Below, one piece after another: positions 12,916 through 61,472 of a stretch of DNA of 64,000 nucleotides. The notes beneath the pieces are model-generated. The model worked only from the letters and a program-made list of their open reading frames with translations. It had not been told where the DNA came from and ran no database searches. Position numbers and translations under genes: made by a program. Within the stretch, counting starts at the first letter, position 1. The number at the start of each line of letters is the position of its first letter. Source of the DNA: an uncultured Clostridia bacterium (GTDB taxonomy: Bacteria; Bacillota; Clostridia; Oscillospirales; CAG-272); assembly GCA_944381085.1 (NCBI GenBank), contig CALWJX010000001.1, positions 83,428-147,427 of the forward strand, given 5' to 3'.

Positions 12916-13186
12916 AAAAAATAAGCCCTCATCTCCAAAAAACAGAGACGAAAGCACAATTTCTTCCGCGGTACCACTCCGATTGACAGTAATCCACTCA
13001 ATACGTACATTTAATACGTTTTCTCTTTAACGGGAGAACCCGTCGTTCCTACTCGAAAAAAACTTTCGGTCCGAAGCTCAGGGGAGAGTTCGATATTGCA
13101 CAAGCCTTTGTCTCGCACCGCCCGACAAATCTCTGAAGAACTTTTAAAGAATATCTTATGCCCCGTCATAGCCTTTTGACTTATTA
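12916..13186 (-). promoter_or_regulatory. T-box leader (probably Leu-specific) with intrinsic terminator, upstream of leuACDB
   Basis: Minus strand reads AATCGGAGTGGTACCGCGG (T-box motif, plus-strand 12966-12984). An F-box-like CCGTTA lies upstream of it. AGAGA and GGTGCGA elements are in the Stem I region. The terminator GCTTTCGTCTC/GAGATGAGGGC (12925-12955) is followed by TTATTTTTT. Confidence 0.85.
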
Positions 13187-55790: not shown

Positions 55791-56630
55791 ATGGAAAGAA
55801 AAATCAGTATAAATAAAATCAAAAGCTTTGAGAAATTTTTAAAAAATGAGGAGAAAAGCAAAGCGACAATTGAAAAATATATTCGCGATGTGCGATATTT
55901 TGTGAGTTTTATCGGTGACGGCGCGATTGACAAACAATTAGTATTGAATTATAAAAGTGAGCTTGGAAATTCTTACGCCGTAACGAGCGCAAATTCCATG
56001 ATTGCCGCGCTTAATTCTTTTTTACGTTTCTGCGGCTGGCATAGTTTATGCGTAAGGCAATTCAGAGTGCAGAGACAGGCATATTGCTCTGAGGATAAGG
56101 AACTGACAAAAGCCGAATATATTCGTTTGATTGAATCTGCAAAAGAAAAAAACAATCAAAGACTGGGTCTTATTATTCAGACTATTTGCGGTACAGGTAT
56201 CCGGGTGAGCGAATTAGAGCATATAACCGTGGAGGCATTGTATAAAGGAGAGACGGTAGTCAATTGCAAATGCAAAAGCCGCCGTATTTTTATAGTACCC
56301 GAGCTAAAGAAAAAACTGCTCCGGTACGCGAAGGAGCACAATATCAAATCGGGCGCGGTGTTTATTACGAGAAGCGGTAAACCCGTCAGCAGAATTAATA
56401 TATGGCGGCAGATGAAAGACCTGTGCGAGACGGCAAAGGTTTGTCCGAGTAAGGTGTTTCCGCATAATCTGCGGCACTTGTTCGCGAGAACATTTTACAG
56501 CATTGAAAAAGACATAGCCAAACTTGCGGATATTCTCGGTCATTCAAGCATCAACACCACACGTATTTATATAGTTACAACCGGAGCCGAACATAAGCGC
56601 AAAATGGAAAATATGAAACTTATAATATAA
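55791..56630 (+). CDS. Tyrosine-type site-specific recombinase (279 aa)
   Basis: GTGIRVSEL (Arg), HNLRHLFA (H-x-x-R) and LGHSSINTTRIY (His, Tyr nucleophile). ATG 55791 follows AAGAGGA. The track start at 55614 lies inside the rpsI terminator. Confidence 0.85.
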   Translation: MERKISINKIKSFEKFLKNEEKSKATIEKYIRDVRYFVSFIGDGAIDKQLVLNYKSELGNSYAVTSANSMIAALNSFLRFCGWHSLCVRQFRVQRQAYCSEDKELTKAEYIRLIESAKEKNNQRLGLIIQTICGTGIRVSELEHITVEALYKGETVVNCKCKSRRIFIVPELKKKLLRYAKEHNIKSGAVFITRSGKPVSRINIWRQMKDLCETAKVCPSKVFPHNLRHLFARTFYSIEKDIAKLADILGHSSINTTRIYIVTTGAEHKRKMENMKLII

Positions 56631-56661
56631 AAAAATTCCCCGGTACGGAAATGTCGGGAAT

Positions 56662-56681
56662 AACATAACGAGAATTATGTT
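56662..56681 (+). repeat. Recombination core site A: AACATAA-CGAGAA-TTATGTT
   Basis: 7-bp inverted arms around an asymmetric 6-bp spacer, 32 nt after the recombinase stop. Confidence 0.7.
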
Positions 56682-56704
56682 GCATTTAAACTATAGATGT
56701 GTAT

Positions 56705-56733
56705 AGTATACTACATAAATGTAAAAAAGTCAA
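56705..56733 (-). promoter_or_regulatory. Leftward-facing promoter inside the switch
   Basis: Minus strand reads TTGACT (56733-56728), 17 nt, TATACT (56710-56705). In the present orientation it fires toward site A and antisense into the recombinase gene. Confidence 0.5.
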
Positions 56734-56771
56734 CATATTTGGAAAAAATTTTAAAATTTTTTTTGTATAAT

Positions 56772-56820
56772 GAAAAGACCTTTCGATTGATTTTTCAAAA
56801 AAAACATGAAAGGTTTTTTC
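56772..56820. terminator. Central bidirectional hairpin inside the switch
   Basis: AAAAGACCTTTC (56773-56784) pairs with GAAAGGTTTTTT (56808-56819). The A-run/T-run arrangement suits termination in both directions. Confidence 0.5.
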
Positions 56821-56865
56821 GTCACGCTTATTTTATATGAGCATCATTTAAATTATATTACCGAT

Positions 56866-56893
56866 TTGACGGATTGTTTACATATTTTATAAC
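56866..56893 (+). promoter_or_regulatory. Rightward-facing promoter at the right edge of the switch
   Basis: TTGACG (56866-56871), 16 nt, TATAAC (56888-56893). The -10 element runs into site B. Confidence 0.45.
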
Positions 56894-56910
56894 ATAATTC
56901 TCGTTATGTT
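56891..56910 (-). repeat. Recombination core site B: AACATAA-TTCTCG-TTATGTT (exact reverse complement of site A)
   Basis: 20/20 identity to site A in inverted orientation, 229 bp from A. Confidence 0.7.
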
Positions 56911-56967
56911 GTTATCGTCTCGGTGTACTTGCATCGGGCATTTATTTATATTGAAAATCAATTTCAC

Positions 56968-56986
56968 AACATAATTCTCGTTATGT
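56968..56986 (-). repeat. Recombination core site C: AACATAA-TTCTCG-TTATGT(a)
   Basis: 19/20 identity to site B in the same orientation as B, 77 bp from B and 306 bp from A. Confidence 0.65.
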
Positions 56987-57097
56987 AATATCCGATAAAT
57001 CAAAATTATACTTAATTCGACAATAATTCCGTTTGATAGGATTTCGGTAGTCATACCGATTCTATATAAAAATTTTTAAAGAAAGAAAGGAAAAAAC

Positions 57098-57619
57098 ATG
57101 AAAAACAGAAGAATTATTCTCATTTCGTTCCTGTTGGTCACTACGCTCTGTATGGGAATTGGTTATGCGGAACTTCAGGACACTCTTAGTGTTAAAGGTA
57201 ATGGATCGGTTGAAGCTGAATCTGCTGAGGTTGCTCTTGATGCGGATGTATATTTTTCTAATGCGCAAGCAACAAATGCGACCGATACAGCATCAATATC
57301 TGACGACAATGACAATGACAATGACACGGCAACATTTACAGTTAATTCACTTCAAGGCAAAGATGATAGTGCCACATTTACTTTTACAATAATAAATGAT
57401 GGCGACCTTCCTGTCTCTATACCCAAACCTACAATAACAGACCCTGAGGATTATTTTGATATTACAACAGATTGGGGTGAAGAGGCAAAAGAGTTAGAAG
57501 GTGGTGGCGCTACATTGACATTTACAGTAACCGTTACACTTAATGCAACTCCTACAGAGACTGTTACAATGAGTGCGTCTACGATTTCATTTACCGCAAC
57601 CGCAGGTGGAACACAATAA
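57098..57619 (+). CDS. Small secreted protein with SipW-cognate-like signal peptide (TasA/BsaA-like candidate subunit)
   Basis: MKNRRIILISFLLVTTLCMGIGYAELQDTLSVKGNGSV. The rest is T/D-rich and beta-strand-like, 173 aa. Shares an N-terminal motif with the 60390 gene. Confidence 0.7.
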   Translation: MKNRRIILISFLLVTTLCMGIGYAELQDTLSVKGNGSVEAESAEVALDADVYFSNAQATNATDTASISDDNDNDNDTATFTVNSLQGKDDSATFTFTIINDGDLPVSIPKPTITDPEDYFDITTDWGEEAKELEGGGATLTFTVTVTLNATPTETVTMSASTISFTATAGGTQ

Positions 57620-57668: not shown

Positions 57669-58784
57669 ATGAGTATCGACAAGATAATTACATACGCCGT
57701 AACTGTAGCTTTTCCGTGTTTTATCCTCCTTGTTTACCTGATTCCGGATGATACCTCAAAGAACATCATTCTGGCGGCGTTGTGCGTGCTTTTCGCGGCG
57801 CTTACCCTGTTGTTTATTAAAAAACGCGGTATTCTAAGGCTTGAAAAACGTCAGATACTGCTTGTGATGTCCGTGCTGTCGGTGTTTGTCGTCATGCTCG
57901 GATATATGACGGGGATTAAATTCGGGTTTGTCAAAAACCCCATTGTTACCCTGTACCTTTGGAAATACATTTTGCCCTACGCGGTAATAATAGCTTCTTC
58001 GGAGATTGTCAGAAAAACACTGCTTGCTCAGCAAAGCAGATTTGTATTCATATTTACATATTTCTCGTTCGTTATCCTCGACTGCGCTATGCTGTCGGGA
58101 GGCATAATATTTGACAGGTACGACGATTTCGCGGATTTTTTCGGAATGATACTTTTCCCCGCGCTTACGTCCAACATCCTGTATCACTATCTGTCGGGGC
58201 GGTACGGCGCGCTTCCGAATATCGTTTACAAGACCGTGATTTCGCTCTACAGATATGTAATTCCCATATTGCCCAAAATGCCGGACATGATGCTTTCCTT
58301 CGCGAAGATTATTTTGCCGCTGATAATCTGTCTGTGCATTTATGAGCTTTACAGAAAAAAGAAATCCGTCGTGTCAAGAGTAAGAAACCGCATAGGCATT
58401 GCCGCGGTATGCGTGTCGTTTGTGTTGACGTTTGCCTGCGTCATGCTTATATCCCGTCAGTTTCAATACGGACTTATTGTGGTAGGTTCCGAGAGTATGT
58501 CGGGGGAGATAGAGAAGGGCGACGGAATTGTTTTCGAGCAATACGACGGTCAGGTTCTTGAAGAAGGACGGATAATTGTCTTCAACCGGGACGGAACCGA
58601 AATAATCCACCGTATTATTGATGTGGAGAACATAAACGGTGAAATACGTTATTATACAAAGGGCGACGCCAACGACAGCGCCGACCCCGGATATATCACG
58701 TCCGACGACATAGTCGGCACATTAACCCTGAATATAAAGTATATCGGACTTCCGACAATTTGGATCCGATCGTTGTTTACATAG
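57669..58784 (+). CDS. Polytopic membrane domain fused to a SipW/ER-type signal peptidase I domain
   Basis: About 260 aa of TM-rich sequence, then VGSESMSGEIEKGD ... IIHRII ... TKGDANDSAD. These correspond to SGSMEP / THRIV / KGDNN in B. subtilis SipW. Confidence 0.75.
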   Translation: MSIDKIITYAVTVAFPCFILLVYLIPDDTSKNIILAALCVLFAALTLLFIKKRGILRLEKRQILLVMSVLSVFVVMLGYMTGIKFGFVKNPIVTLYLWKYILPYAVIIASSEIVRKTLLAQQSRFVFIFTYFSFVILDCAMLSGGIIFDRYDDFADFFGMILFPALTSNILYHYLSGRYGALPNIVYKTVISLYRYVIPILPKMPDMMLSFAKIILPLIICLCIYELYRKKKSVVSRVRNRIGIAAVCVSFVLTFACVMLISRQFQYGLIVVGSESMSGEIEKGDGIVFEQYDGQVLEEGRIIVFNRDGTEIIHRIIDVENINGEIRYYTKGDANDSADPGYITSDDIVGTLTLNIKYIGLPTIWIRSLFT

Positions 58785-58813: not shown

Positions 58814-60328
58814 ATGTCAGAAAAAGAAAAACTACAGCGCGACGAATATCAGAAAAGCCGTAAAAAACTGATTTTTTTGTTCTCGGTAATTGCTCTGGCG
58901 CTGGCATTTTTAACGGTGGTTACTTCCGTTGTCTTTGGGATACTCGACAGAAAGACATATGTTTCTTTCAAAGAACAGGGAAGCGTCGTATATAAGGCTT
59001 ACCTTGCCGACAATGAGTTTTACAGCGAGGAGTATCTCAACGGTAACCACGCCTATGTGGCGGAGCTGATTGAGAGCATGACCGCGGATTTCAGATACGA
59101 CCTGAATATGGACGCGAAAGACGTTACATATAAGTATTCGTATAATGTTGAAGCGGTGCTTGAGATTAAAGATCGCAATTCGGGCATGGTTATCTATAAC
59201 CCGGTATATGAGCTTGTTCCCGAAACCTCTGCGACTTCAGGCGACAGAGACCTTTCAATCGAGGATAATGTGTACATAGATTACAACATGTACAATGATA
59301 TCGCCAAAAACTTTCTTGAGGTATACGAGCTTAACAACACAACAAACACTTTGCGTGTAAGTATGTATGTGGATGTTGTGGGAGAGAGCGAGACATTCGC
59401 GAACGATAAAGAGGGACAGTATGTCATAGAGCTTTCGATACCATTGGCTCAGACCACAGTTACTCCGCAGGTATCGGCGTCGGTTCCGGCTTCTTCTCAA
59501 GTGCTCGCGCTTGATGGAATCGCTAAAATAGTACTGAAAGTTCTCGCAATCGTGTTCGGCGTTCTGTGCGGACTGATGATTGTCTTTACGGTTTTGTTTA
59601 TCGTACTTACCAGAGACGAGCATCTGGATTATTCCAGAAAAGTTCAGAAGCTTGTCGCGAGCTATAAATCTTATATACAGAAAATCAATAATCCCTTTGA
59701 TATGGAAGGGTATCAGATACTTTACGTGGATACGTTCCCGGAAATGCTTGAGATAAGGGATACCATTCAGACCCCGGTGCTCATGTATGAAAATGAAGAC
59801 AGAACCTGCACGCAGTTTTTTATTGCTTCGTGCGCGAAAATACTTTATCTCTTTGAGATTAAGGTTGATTTTCCGCCGGCTCCTCCGGAAGACCCTATAG
59901 ATTCCGAGCCTGTTTTGGAAGTTGTTACTCCCGAGCCTGAGCCTGAACCTATACCTGAGCCTGAACCCGAACCGGAACCCGAGCCTATACCTGAACCGGA
60001 ACCCGAACCGATAATTGAACCTGAACCGATTCCCGAACCCGAGCCGACAAAAGAAGAGGCGCAGGAAGCCGAGAATATGGTTGACGCTATTGACATCTCG
60101 TGGCCTGAGGGTGACGGCAGGACATACAGATACGACCCTAATGGGGAAAAACTTGATAAAGGCGACGAGGTGCTGGCGCCGTCGTTTGATAAGTTCAGAA
60201 AAAGAGAAATAGTGCGCAAGGCGACAGTCGCGCAGGGAAATTATAAGGTAGACCCCGACAGCTTGGAACATCCGCTTAAGAAAATAGCCGGAGTTGTCAA
60301 GAGAAATCTGTTGAGTATGTTCTGCTGA
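58814..60328 (+). CDS. Bitopic (TM-ectodomain-TM) protein with cytoplasmic PE-repeat linker and C-terminal globular domain
   Basis: ATG 58814 follows AGGAGGGGG. TMs at roughly residues 20-45 and 235-265. PEPEPEPIPEPEPEPEPEPIPEPEPEPIIEPEPIPEPEP. The N-terminal part may be DUF5305-like (from memory only). Confidence 0.7.
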   Translation: MSEKEKLQRDEYQKSRKKLIFLFSVIALALAFLTVVTSVVFGILDRKTYVSFKEQGSVVYKAYLADNEFYSEEYLNGNHAYVAELIESMTADFRYDLNMDAKDVTYKYSYNVEAVLEIKDRNSGMVIYNPVYELVPETSATSGDRDLSIEDNVYIDYNMYNDIAKNFLEVYELNNTTNTLRVSMYVDVVGESETFANDKEGQYVIELSIPLAQTTVTPQVSASVPASSQVLALDGIAKIVLKVLAIVFGVLCGLMIVFTVLFIVLTRDEHLDYSRKVQKLVASYKSYIQKINNPFDMEGYQILYVDTFPEMLEIRDTIQTPVLMYENEDRTCTQFFIASCAKILYLFEIKVDFPPAPPEDPIDSEPVLEVVTPEPEPEPIPEPEPEPEPEPIPEPEPEPIIEPEPIPEPEPTKEEAQEAENMVDAIDISWPEGDGRTYRYDPNGEKLDKGDEVLAPSFDKFRKREIVRKATVAQGNYKVDPDSLEHPLKKIAGVVKRNLLSMFC

Positions 60329-60389
60329 AATCTCGTTGATAACTTAATTCAGGTTGTTTTCTTTGAGTGAAAGGAGGTGTGAAGATAAA

Positions 60390-61472
60390 ATGAAAAGATT
60401 TGTGATTGTTGTAACCTGTATATTGCTCTGCTTTATTTTTGTCTTCACATGTATAGGTTACGCCGCGATTTCCGATACCTTGCAGATTTCGGGAAACGCG
60501 ACCGTGACGCCTCCGGAAGCAGTGTTTATTTCCGGCGCGGAGGTTGTTGGGGGAAACGCTACGGTGACATATTCGGGAACAAGCCTGTTTGTTACCGGAA
60601 GCGGTCAAGTGACAGTCAATATTACATTTTTCAATAATACTGCCGAGGTACATAGGTATAACGGGATAAGCGTGATTGATTCCTCAATTTTCAGCACTTA
60701 CCCTATGAGTATTTCAAGGGGAGCTGAAATCGCCATAAGTGGCACATTGGAAGCGACGATTACGTTAAATATTACCGGCAGCGCGAACGGAGAGGGCATA
60801 GTATTTGACTTTGTAACGGGAGATAGCTATATTGATAATCCGGCGGATCAGTTTGAGGATATACTGAATAATGAGGATAGCTTTAAGGAGCTTGAAGATA
60901 TTTTAAACGATGAGACGACAGTAGGCGGTGAAGGTCAGCGTGGAGACACGTCATATATTCAGAATACCGGAAACAATGCCGATGAAGTGAATAAAATAGT
61001 AAATGAATTGTTTGATGTCAATGGCGAGAGCCTTCTTACCGATGATACTACTGTCCTTATCAAGAGAGAAAACAAGGATGATATGCCACAGGGTGTAGAT
61101 GTTATGACATTGTATTTTGCAGCCACCTCAGAGATAACGTCTAAGGAACCCTCTATTATGGGGGTGACTGAAAATGTCAATGTCAGAGCTGCCATCTTTA
61201 TTAATAATGGTGAAGGTTGGGAACAAATAGTAAATCAGGAAGACGCTGGGAACGGCGGAATGTTTACGGGGGAGGCATTGGCGACATATTATGACTACAA
61301 GTATGAAGAGTGGTGGGGTCAACATCCGAGAGAGAATTATGACTCATTTGACACCGGTACATGGAGTACATACGACAATGGCATCATAACCAACATTGAA
61401 GGAGGGTCAACGGATATCGTGGCAAACGATGATGTCAGAACTATTGTAAACAAATACCTCGGGTATTATTAA
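60390..61472 (+). CDS. Secreted protein with SipW-cognate-like signal peptide (larger candidate subunit)
   Basis: MKRFVIVVTCILLCFIFVFTCIGYAAISDTLQISGNATV. ATG 60390 follows AAGGAGG. 360 aa. Confidence 0.7.
   Translation: MKRFVIVVTCILLCFIFVFTCIGYAAISDTLQISGNATVTPPEAVFISGAEVVGGNATVTYSGTSLFVTGSGQVTVNITFFNNTAEVHRYNGISVIDSSIFSTYPMSISRGAEIAISGTLEATITLNITGSANGEGIVFDFVTGDSYIDNPADQFEDILNNEDSFKELEDILNDETTVGGEGQRGDTSYIQNTGNNADEVNKIVNELFDVNGESLLTDDTTVLIKRENKDDMPQGVDVMTLYFAATSEITSKEPSIMGVTENVNVRAAIFINNGEGWEQIVNQEDAGNGGMFTGEALATYYDYKYEEWWGQHPRENYDSFDTGTWSTYDNGIITNIEGGSTDIVANDDVRTIVNKYLGYY

Follow-up and report, generated by a model that had tools for sequence, protein, structure and literature searches.

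Several described inversion systems bear on the locus analyzed here, in which a tyrosine recombinase gene, three recombination sites (A, B and C) and a four-gene operon follow one another in a 64,000-nucleotide stretch of DNA (the window; contig CALWJX010000001.1, assembly GCA_944381085.1) from an uncultured Clostridia bacterium. The fimS switch of FimB and FimE in E. coli shares with it the placement of one or more tyrosine recombinase genes directly upstream of an invertible promoter of ~300 bp (a predicted one in the window) that drives a surface-fibre operon (a putative one in the window). Termination within or beside that switch feeds back on the recombinase gene, a phenomenon summarized in PMC2784873 as orientational control of fimE. 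The RecV switches of C. difficile (cwpV, flgB and cmrRST) are likewise found in the Firmicutes and likewise involve a tyrosine recombinase, with inversions of ~150–200 bp upstream of surface-protein genes; the inverted repeats that flank these inversions, at ~21 bp, are comparable to the sites in the window. In cwpV, an intrinsic terminator that forms in an orientation-dependent manner determines the output (PMC2784873). Shufflons (R64 Rci/sfx) and the Mycoplasma vsa/vpma systems resemble the locus in having one tyrosine recombinase, at least three sites, nested or overlapping inversions and more than two states, and multi-site inversion in Mycoplasma moves a promoter relative to genes (reviewed in PMC11868660). 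Invertons of the gut microbiome are intergenic invertible promoters that can be detected, as can the arrangements of this locus, as alternative orientations in metagenomes, and they have been catalogued with PhaseFinder and PhaVa (cited in PMC11868660 and PMC10028968). Promoter-inversion phase variation is usually treated as binary, with two repeats, and microbiome inverton software assumes as much. The locus in the window is a real multi-state genetic switch, made up of the following elements.

55791 to 56630, plus strand: tyrosine recombinase gene (279 aa), the presumed switch invertase, from its Pfam matches and its linkage to the sites.
56662 to 56681, plus strand: site A, AACATAACGAGAATTATGTT, the fixed left boundary, found by direct reading and pattern search.
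56682 to 56890, no strand assigned: invertible segment X, 209 bp, which assemblies of the same strains contain either way round.
56891 to 56910, minus strand: site B, the exact reverse complement of A and the inner site.
56911 to 56967, plus strand: cassette Y, 57 bp, in which a terminator scan finds a hairpin (CTCGGTGT-ACTT-GCATCGGG, 56919–56938) followed by CATTTATTTATATT.
56968 to 56987, minus strand: site C, a 19/20 copy and the fixed right boundary.

Contigs with this locus were retrieved from public assemblies by means of the exact recombinase, its 96% variant or the 173-aa protein encoded downstream. The flanks, X, Y and the sites were located in each contig with BLAST, and two contigs (L025 and L027) were read base by base. 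Four arrangements were found, written below with plus and minus for the orientation of a site and a prime for an inverted segment.

State 1, A(+) X B(−) Y C(−): the window, L001, L004, L005, L012, L030 and the partial contig L033.
State 2, A(+) X' B(−) Y C(−): L027 and L032.
State 3, A(+) Y' B(+) X' C(−): L025 and L034.
State 4, A(+) Y' B(+) X C(−): L002, L003, L029 and L031.

Inversions between sites of opposite orientation can produce exactly these four arrangements. A x B converts states 1 and 2 into each other, A x C does so for states 1 and 3 and for states 2 and 4, and B x C, after reversal of B, for states 3 and 4; no arrangement that violates site polarity occurs among the contigs of this species. 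Site A has the same place and orientation throughout. In states 1 and 2, site B has minus orientation and separates X from Y; in states 3 and 4 it has plus orientation and separates Y' from X. Site C differs from A solely in its outermost base, which adjoins the right flank, and this outer-arm mismatch remains with the right flank in every state. Because it never leaves, the breakpoints must lie inside the 20-bp sites. Identical flanks accompany different states: L027 (state 2) and L030 (state 1) agree at 867/867 and 980/980 flanking bases, and L025 (state 3) and L032 (state 2) agree over the same numbers of bases. Hence, switching occurs within a strain. X has the defining property of an inverton, in that it lies between oppositely oriented sites and is found both ways round in contigs with identical flanks. 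The locus also behaves as shufflons and other multiple-inversion systems do, with three sites giving four arrangements, all of them observed. The exchange of coding segments that marks a shufflon is absent, X and Y being non-coding and located between the recombinase stop and the operon start codons.

The original prediction, made from the letters of the window, held that inversions by A x B and A x C would yield several states rather than an ON/OFF pair, and all four of the predicted arrangements are present in public assemblies. Its reading of the locus as a nested switch therefore stands as regards the inversions, while the promoter, the orientation of that promoter, the terminator-like content of Y and the spread of the switch through a large family went unidentified in it. 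It had further suggested that B x C could excise 77 bp. The excision product is absent from the ~14 contigs of this species, although small cassettes have been lost and duplicated in a relative described below.

Each site has 7-bp inverted arms, AACATAA and TTATGTT, around an asymmetric 6-bp spacer, CGAGAA. Site A begins 32 nt past the last base of the recombinase stop codon (56630), and the start-to-start spacings of the sites are 229, 306 and 77 bp. Direct reading and a pattern search confirmed the three sites, arms, spacer, offset and spacings as first described. The further copies of the 20-mer that the original prediction proposed to look for were not found at up to 3 mismatches elsewhere in the window by pattern search, and none of 100 dinucleotide-preserving shuffles contained three matches (mean 0.01). 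In an inverted-repeat scan, A, B and C are the sole strong short-range inverted repeats of the window. Scanning 241 million metagenome records for the 19-mer gave seven matches, of which six are single and unrelated; the seventh (L012) contains three copies and represents this locus in a 96% variant strain. The idea that the site is a common genomic repeat is rejected on these grounds. Complementarity between A and C extends beyond the 20-mer to 29 nt at 90% (56654–56682 against 56967–56995; TCGGGAAT... against ...ATATCCGA). This longer match is missing at the inner site B; at the fixed boundaries, the binding site may be longer or an accessory element may be present. Inverted arms, an asymmetric spacer, spacers that match within the locus and products that obey polarity are the properties by which lox/FRT-type core sites are recognized, and the three sites have all of them.

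Which enzyme acts on the sites? The adjacent gene encodes a protein with matches to PF00589 (Phage_integrase; 81.5 bits against a cut-off of 27.1, E 8e-23) and, in an N-terminal SAM-like domain, to PF02899 (Phage_int_SAM_1; 29.2 bits against 22.3). Its nearest solved structures are archaeal and XerA-like (4a8e and 5hxy). R138, H225, R228, H251 and Y260 (R, H-x-x-R, H, Y), together with K160/K162, are invariant in a 12-member family alignment; their catalytic roles were assigned by motif context (GIRVSE, HNLRH, GH and RIY). The protein scores below the NCBIfam cut-offs for the Xer equivalogs (XerA 135.5/220, XerD 107.9/329.6, XerC 102.7/335 and XerS 64.7/267) and for FimB/FimE-type invertases (NF007371 28.3/222 and NF007370 25.4/221). 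It presumably works like the FimB/FimE-type invertases and lies outside that subfamily. The setting is chromosomal, with rplM-rpsI and an ABC transporter upstream of the gene and the four-gene operon downstream. A phage integrase or insertion sequence (IS) context in the window is rejected in view of the upstream rplM-rpsI genes, and the Pfam domains and these neighbors bear out the original description of a small recombinase of 279 aa outside any phage or IS.

Homologues of the recombinase number in the thousands, at 66–80% identity, in uncultured Clostridia. A set of 80 species-level loci was fetched (L036–L115); the window's own species is not among them, and the best identity is 79%. The loci come from metagenome-assembled genomes of the human and ruminant gut (Clostridia, Eubacteriales, Oscillospiraceae and Acutalibacteraceae) and from one isolate, Massiliimalia timonensis. 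In more than 60 species loci the recombinase gene adjoins cognate sites, the first of which is ~30–60 bp past the stop codon. Loci at 69–79% identity have ACATAACGAGAGTTATGT ~40 bp after the stop and an inverted partner 240–260 bp beyond it; two sites are present in 27 of these loci, and three to five, spaced ~30–33 bp, in 17 complete ones. The arms ACATAA/TTATGT are conserved across the family, including loci at 66–68% identity. The spacers are specific to lineages (CGAGAA, CGAGAG, TGGTTA, TGGGTA, TTTTGA, TCTGTA and TGATTA, the last five in loci at 66–68% identity) and identical among the sites of one locus. Conserved arms with a variable but matched spacer are the signature of lox/FRT-type core sites. 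Combined with the fixed position of the sites beside the gene, this pattern argues that the adjacent recombinase is the acting enzyme, presumably a single enzyme for all sites.

Rearrangement is also visible among these relatives. For example, ten contigs encode an identical recombinase (P0088, 74% identity) and show at least six arrangements of three to five sites, with both orientations of X, two mini-cassettes redistributed between the sides of X, one cassette lost (L016) and one duplicated (L021). Approximately 12 of the 80 contigs end within 300 bp of the recombinase stop, in the switch or at its margin (L038, L041, L047, L052, L056, L061, L063, L090, L091, L096, L097 and L108), as would be expected if mixed orientations break assemblies. 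The cargo of the relatives is usually a TetR-like regulator. In other cases it is a type IV pilin, a TasA-like protein whose signal reads GTTYAWFTD, or a gene homologous to gene 1 of the operon in the window. Tandem arrays of up to five sites, 31–33 bp apart, lie 30–420 nt past the recombinase stop in the relatives L013–L022. In L013–L024, the module follows genes for an XRE-type helix-turn-helix protein, a resolvase-like protein, TnpV and DUF6809, neighbors that suggest a mobile-element setting in those relatives, unlike the window.

The non-coding DNA of the switch and its left flank contains the following predicted signals.

56705 to 56733, minus strand: predicted promoter P1, TTGACT-17-TATACT (10/12 matches in the scan), firing outward.
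56852 to 56880, minus strand: second promoter-like match, TAAACA-17-TATAAT (10/12 in the scan), upstream of the central hairpin.
56770 to 56822, no strand assigned: central hairpin in X that has a U-rich tail on each strand.
56620 to 56661, minus strand: fixed terminator-like hairpin with a U7 tail (terminator scan 56651..56637), facing the switch.

P1 has an A/T-rich upstream tract and is 23 nt from the end of X. The X segments of relatives have a conserved TTGAYT-17-(TGn)TATAAT at the equivalent position and in the same outward direction, and this promoter faces the cargo in about half of the species loci and away from it in about half. Aligned to the promoter-to-cargo form of the relatives, the window's X scores higher as its reverse complement than as it stands (131–137 against 97–111). 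A first MAFFT alignment had placed the window's X in the promoter-to-cargo orientation because a palindromic hairpin shared with the relatives misled it, and scoring both orientations overturned that result. P1 points to the operon in L025, L027, L032 and L034. In the window it points to the recombinase gene, which is why the window is read as a presumptive OFF state. We infer that P1 is a sigma-70-like promoter whose orientation gates the downstream operon. The second promoter-like match is not obviously conserved in relatives, and its status is uncertain. The central hairpin folds at −18.2 kcal/mol on the plus strand (z −3.9) and −13.8 kcal/mol on the minus strand (z −2.8), is kept in relatives as AAAAGCCTTTCG...CGAAAGGC, and is probably a bidirectional terminator that insulates P1 from read-through. 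In every relative examined, a clear minus-strand terminator of −10 to −16 kcal/mol lies between the recombinase stop and the first site and faces the switch. On the plus strand, the recombinase gene has no terminator of its own ahead of the switch. No Rfam family matches the switch or the leader of the operon; the sole match above the Rfam gathering score in the window is a T-box leader (RF00230, 98.8 bits) at 12941–13178 on the minus strand.

The hairpin of cassette Y is strand-specific, at −10.7 kcal/mol on the plus strand (z −2.75) and only −3.0 kcal/mol on the minus strand. Its stem has 8 pairs, 3 of them G.U, which become C-A mismatches on the opposite strand. Y occurs to the left or to the right of X, in every case inverted when it is to the left. 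As its reverse complement, Y is similar to the terminator fixed in the left flank of relatives (CCCGATGCAAGTACACCGAGAC against CCCGATGCGAACACACCGAGAC), and both stand immediately before a site; thus, Y looks like a duplicated terminator-plus-site unit. A variant of Y in L035 keeps the hairpin and turns a U.G pair into U-A. We infer that Y is a mobile unidirectional terminator. Similar units exist in a divergent lineage, where 11 of 21 loci have cassettes of 45–47 bp (12 cassettes in total, with one on each side in L104). A canonical terminator (GCCGATGTT-loop-AACATCGG, then T6) is present in every one of them and is on the plus strand if right of X and on the minus strand if left of X, in 12/12 cassettes, and near-identical cassettes occupy opposite sides in related species (L087 and L107). 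The terminator always faces X because inversion both moves and flips the cassette. Promoter orientation in this lineage was called by alignment, a strict promoter regular expression having missed most promoters. Among the loci with a single cassette, the promoter faces the cargo in five and is blocked by the cassette, faces away in two with the cassette on the right, and faces away in three with the cassette on the left. The fully ON arrangement occurs in none (0) of these single-cassette species loci of the divergent lineage, in numbers too small to interpret.

The operon that the switch would control lies to the right of site C.

56988 to 57097, plus strand: fixed 5' leader with a small hairpin (57044–57059) and a ribosome-binding site.
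57098 to 57619, plus strand: cargo gene 1, a 173-aa secreted protein with a signal and the N-terminal motif IGYAELQDTLSVKGN.
57669 to 58784, plus strand: cargo gene 2, a SipW/archaeal-type signal peptidase I domain (Pfam S26) fused to a polytopic membrane domain.
58814 to 60328, plus strand: cargo gene 3, a DUF5305 membrane protein (PF17231, 29.6 bits against a cut-off of 29), with its start taken from the called genes.
60354 to 61472, with a likely ATG at 60390, plus strand: cargo gene 4, a second secreted protein with the signal motif IGYAAISDTLQISGN.

The leader hairpin folds no better than shuffled sequences. The product of gene 1 has no sequence match in Pfam, NCBIfam or PDB, including the TasA and camelysin families, and 27 unnamed relatives. 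Its AlphaFold2 model (pLDDT, the predicted local distance difference test, 79) is a predicted beta-sandwich, for which Foldseek gives weak matches to donor-strand pilins and archaeal filaments; since none reaches E <= 0.001, the term “pilin/TasA-like” is only a suggestion. The peptidase domain of gene 2 (residues 247–363) scores 73.8 bits against TIGR02228 (cut-off 51.85) and falls below the Bacillus SipW equivalog cut-off (53.5 against 190). The N-terminal ~240 aa of this protein are rich in hydrophobic helices, an unusual architecture for a signal peptidase I. Gene 3 encodes a long Pro-Glu repeat (PEPEPEPEPI...) after its transmembrane segment. The N-terminus of the gene 4 product is paralogous to that of gene 1 (tblastn E 1.5e-4; IGYAAISDTLQISGN against IGYAELQDTLSVKGN). 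The two share a signal peptide followed by IGYA-x-[IL]-x-DTL-x-[IV]-x-GN, which matches no described family, and both proteins may be substrates of the operon's own peptidase. As far as gene content can tell, the layout resembles that of matrix or fibre operons of the tapA-sipW-tasA type.

What would the four states mean for expression of this operon? The locus is, with high probability in our judgment, a three-site, nested, cis-linked inverton in which the sites, a promoter and a mobile terminator act together in controlling the operon, and it probably turns this secreted-fibre operon on, off or partly on. Under this model, A x B would flip X alone, and A x C would flip X and Y together and reverse B, after which B x C would flip X alone. 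For P1 to read into the SipW-type operon, X would have to lie in the orientation opposite to that in the window. In state 3, P1 would read through site C into the operon, which would be fully ON. In state 2, transcription from P1 would meet Y first, leaving the operon attenuated or OFF. In state 1, P1 would fire leftward and be stopped only by the weak fixed hairpin, whose role would be to stop transcription leaving the switch toward the recombinase gene; in state 4, P1 would also fire leftward and be stopped by Y' too. The operon would be OFF in both of these states. Full expression would thus need two conditions, a flipped promoter and Y on the recombinase side. States 1 and 4 would differ in the antisense exposure of the recombinase gene and hence in switching rate, analogous to orientational control of fimE. 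One enzyme would in this way write a two-bit register, promoter direction and terminator position, for graded, phase-variable expression of a surface or matrix structure. The broader claim, that this is a natural two-bit register in which promoter and terminator cassette move independently and four heritable arrangements encode OFF, shielded-OFF, attenuated and ON expression, and that such promoter invertons with a mobile terminator or an array of tandem sites recur in many uncultured gut Clostridia where they drive regulators, pilins and matrix proteins, could in our estimation fall either way. Persistence of the cassette is a related matter. A DNA-looping limit is reported for excision by Cre and FLP, and the distances between direct sites, 57 bp here and 13–14 bp in relatives, are near or below it; such short distances may account for the persistence of the cassettes.

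Support for the switch itself is good, and the promoter and terminator logic attached to it is a testable proposal. Perhaps the locus is instead a plain ON/OFF promoter inverton, in which B and Y are a neutral duplication of flank plus site and the orientation of X alone sets the output. We consider this unlikely, but it has real points in its favor. Tandem extra sites with mini-cassettes of 13–14 bp that contain no terminator are common in relatives, which indicates that extra sites arise readily and can exist without the function proposed for Y. The hairpin and U-tract of Y are modest as well: the tract is interrupted (CAUUUAUUUAUAUU) and the stem relies on G.U pairs, so that termination at Y may be weak. 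Several further observations also weigh against the proposed model as a whole. Assemblies give the majority state of a sample and not switching rates, P1 and the terminator in Y are predictions from sequence only, the window's fixed flank hairpin (−7.1 kcal/mol) folds no better than shuffles, the cassette geometry that lineages share may have been inherited from a common ancestor and not selected independently, and the role of the recombinase rests on conserved linkage. Set against a silent extra site, Y retains a strand-specific hairpin with a T-rich tail, which the L035 variant improves by a base pair; the divergent lineage retains canonical terminator cassettes in the same geometry, without exception in 12 cassettes; and every family member checked retains a terminator facing the switch.

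An improbable alternative is that Y remodels a promoter or leader at the junction instead of terminating transcription. The scan offers a candidate, which is lost when X abuts C.

56963 to 56991: hybrid promoter, TTCACA-17-TAATAT (9/12 in the scan), spanning Y, site C and the right flank.

Its −35 element becomes a poorer hexamer in states 3 and 4, as this alternative would have it. The match is weak, however, and sits in an AT-rich region with 19 such matches, whereas relatives have a strong conserved promoter within X; moreover, the terminator-like cassettes of other lineages do not recreate a junction promoter.

It is more doubtful still that the DNA is rearranged by a trans-acting recombinase encoded elsewhere, as with RecV, or by RecA acting between the 20-bp repeats. 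Trans-acting invertases are known (PMC2784873), and it is through linkage that the adjacent recombinase has been assigned its role. That linkage nevertheless holds across more than 60 species loci, conservation of the arms goes together with the protein clade, and spacer-matched, arm-conserved sites have the core-site architecture of tyrosine recombinases. Repeats of 20 bp are poor substrates for RecA, which disfavors RecA-dependent exchange. At one end of L035 (2778–2858), the reverse complement of the recombinase-side flank replaces the operon flank past the third site; this palindromic junction may have arisen as a chimera during assembly, or an A x C exchange between sister chromosomes may have left it. 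That the alternative arrangements are all assembly artefacts created by the repeated 20-mer is scarcely credible despite this implausible junction and the several relatives' contigs that break within the switch, because the assembly k-mers (87–141) exceed the 20-bp repeat and the states recur across independent samples, studies and pipelines, in polarity-allowed arrangements only.

What are the implications of a switch of this kind? First, a third site gives four arrangements in natural populations, and if Y is truly a terminator, one enzyme yields graded or gated expression. Second, if the model is correct, the recombinase may tune its own expression according to state. Third, recombinases of this clade abound in the gut Clostridia of humans and ruminants, and many of the complete switches among the 80 loci have at least three sites. 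Hence, multi-state switches may be common and under-counted in gut bacteria, and, if so, they form a class that two-repeat inverton finders have missed or mis-scored. Fourth, the system is small (~1.2 kb), self-contained and reversible, so that it can readily be tested and might serve as a compact part for genetic memory. In full-text literature searches, neither this recombinase clade nor any promoter inverton with nested or multiple sites was found described, and nothing linked invertible promoters with SipW; such an absence is not proof of novelty.

The comparison with known systems brings out what is particular to the locus. fimS has two 9-bp inverted repeats, two states, two recombinases assisted by IHF and Lrp, and no mobile cassette; the recombinase in the window scores 28 bits against a cut-off of 222 for the NCBIfam “tyrosine-type DNA invertase” family. 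RecV acts in trans on several two-site loci, and the cwpV promoter is outside the invertible DNA, whereas here the predicted promoter is inside, the recombinase is cis-linked and the putative terminator cassette is relocated by means of a third site. Shufflons and the Mycoplasma systems swap coding segments or whole genes, whereas only a non-coding promoter and a terminator-like cassette, upstream of a fixed operon, are rearranged here. The sfx sites are without symmetric arms, unlike the symmetric-armed sites of the window. Inverton catalogues and recent reviews take an inverton to be one pair of inverted repeats, in contrast to the three sites found here. The nearest match in design is synthetic. 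Recombinase state machines of the transcriptor type place promoters and unidirectional terminators between sites, such that the arrangement encodes expression, and they usually employ several orthogonal serine integrases in irreversible steps. If the proposed logic is true, the locus in the window is their natural counterpart, reversible and run by one tyrosine recombinase.

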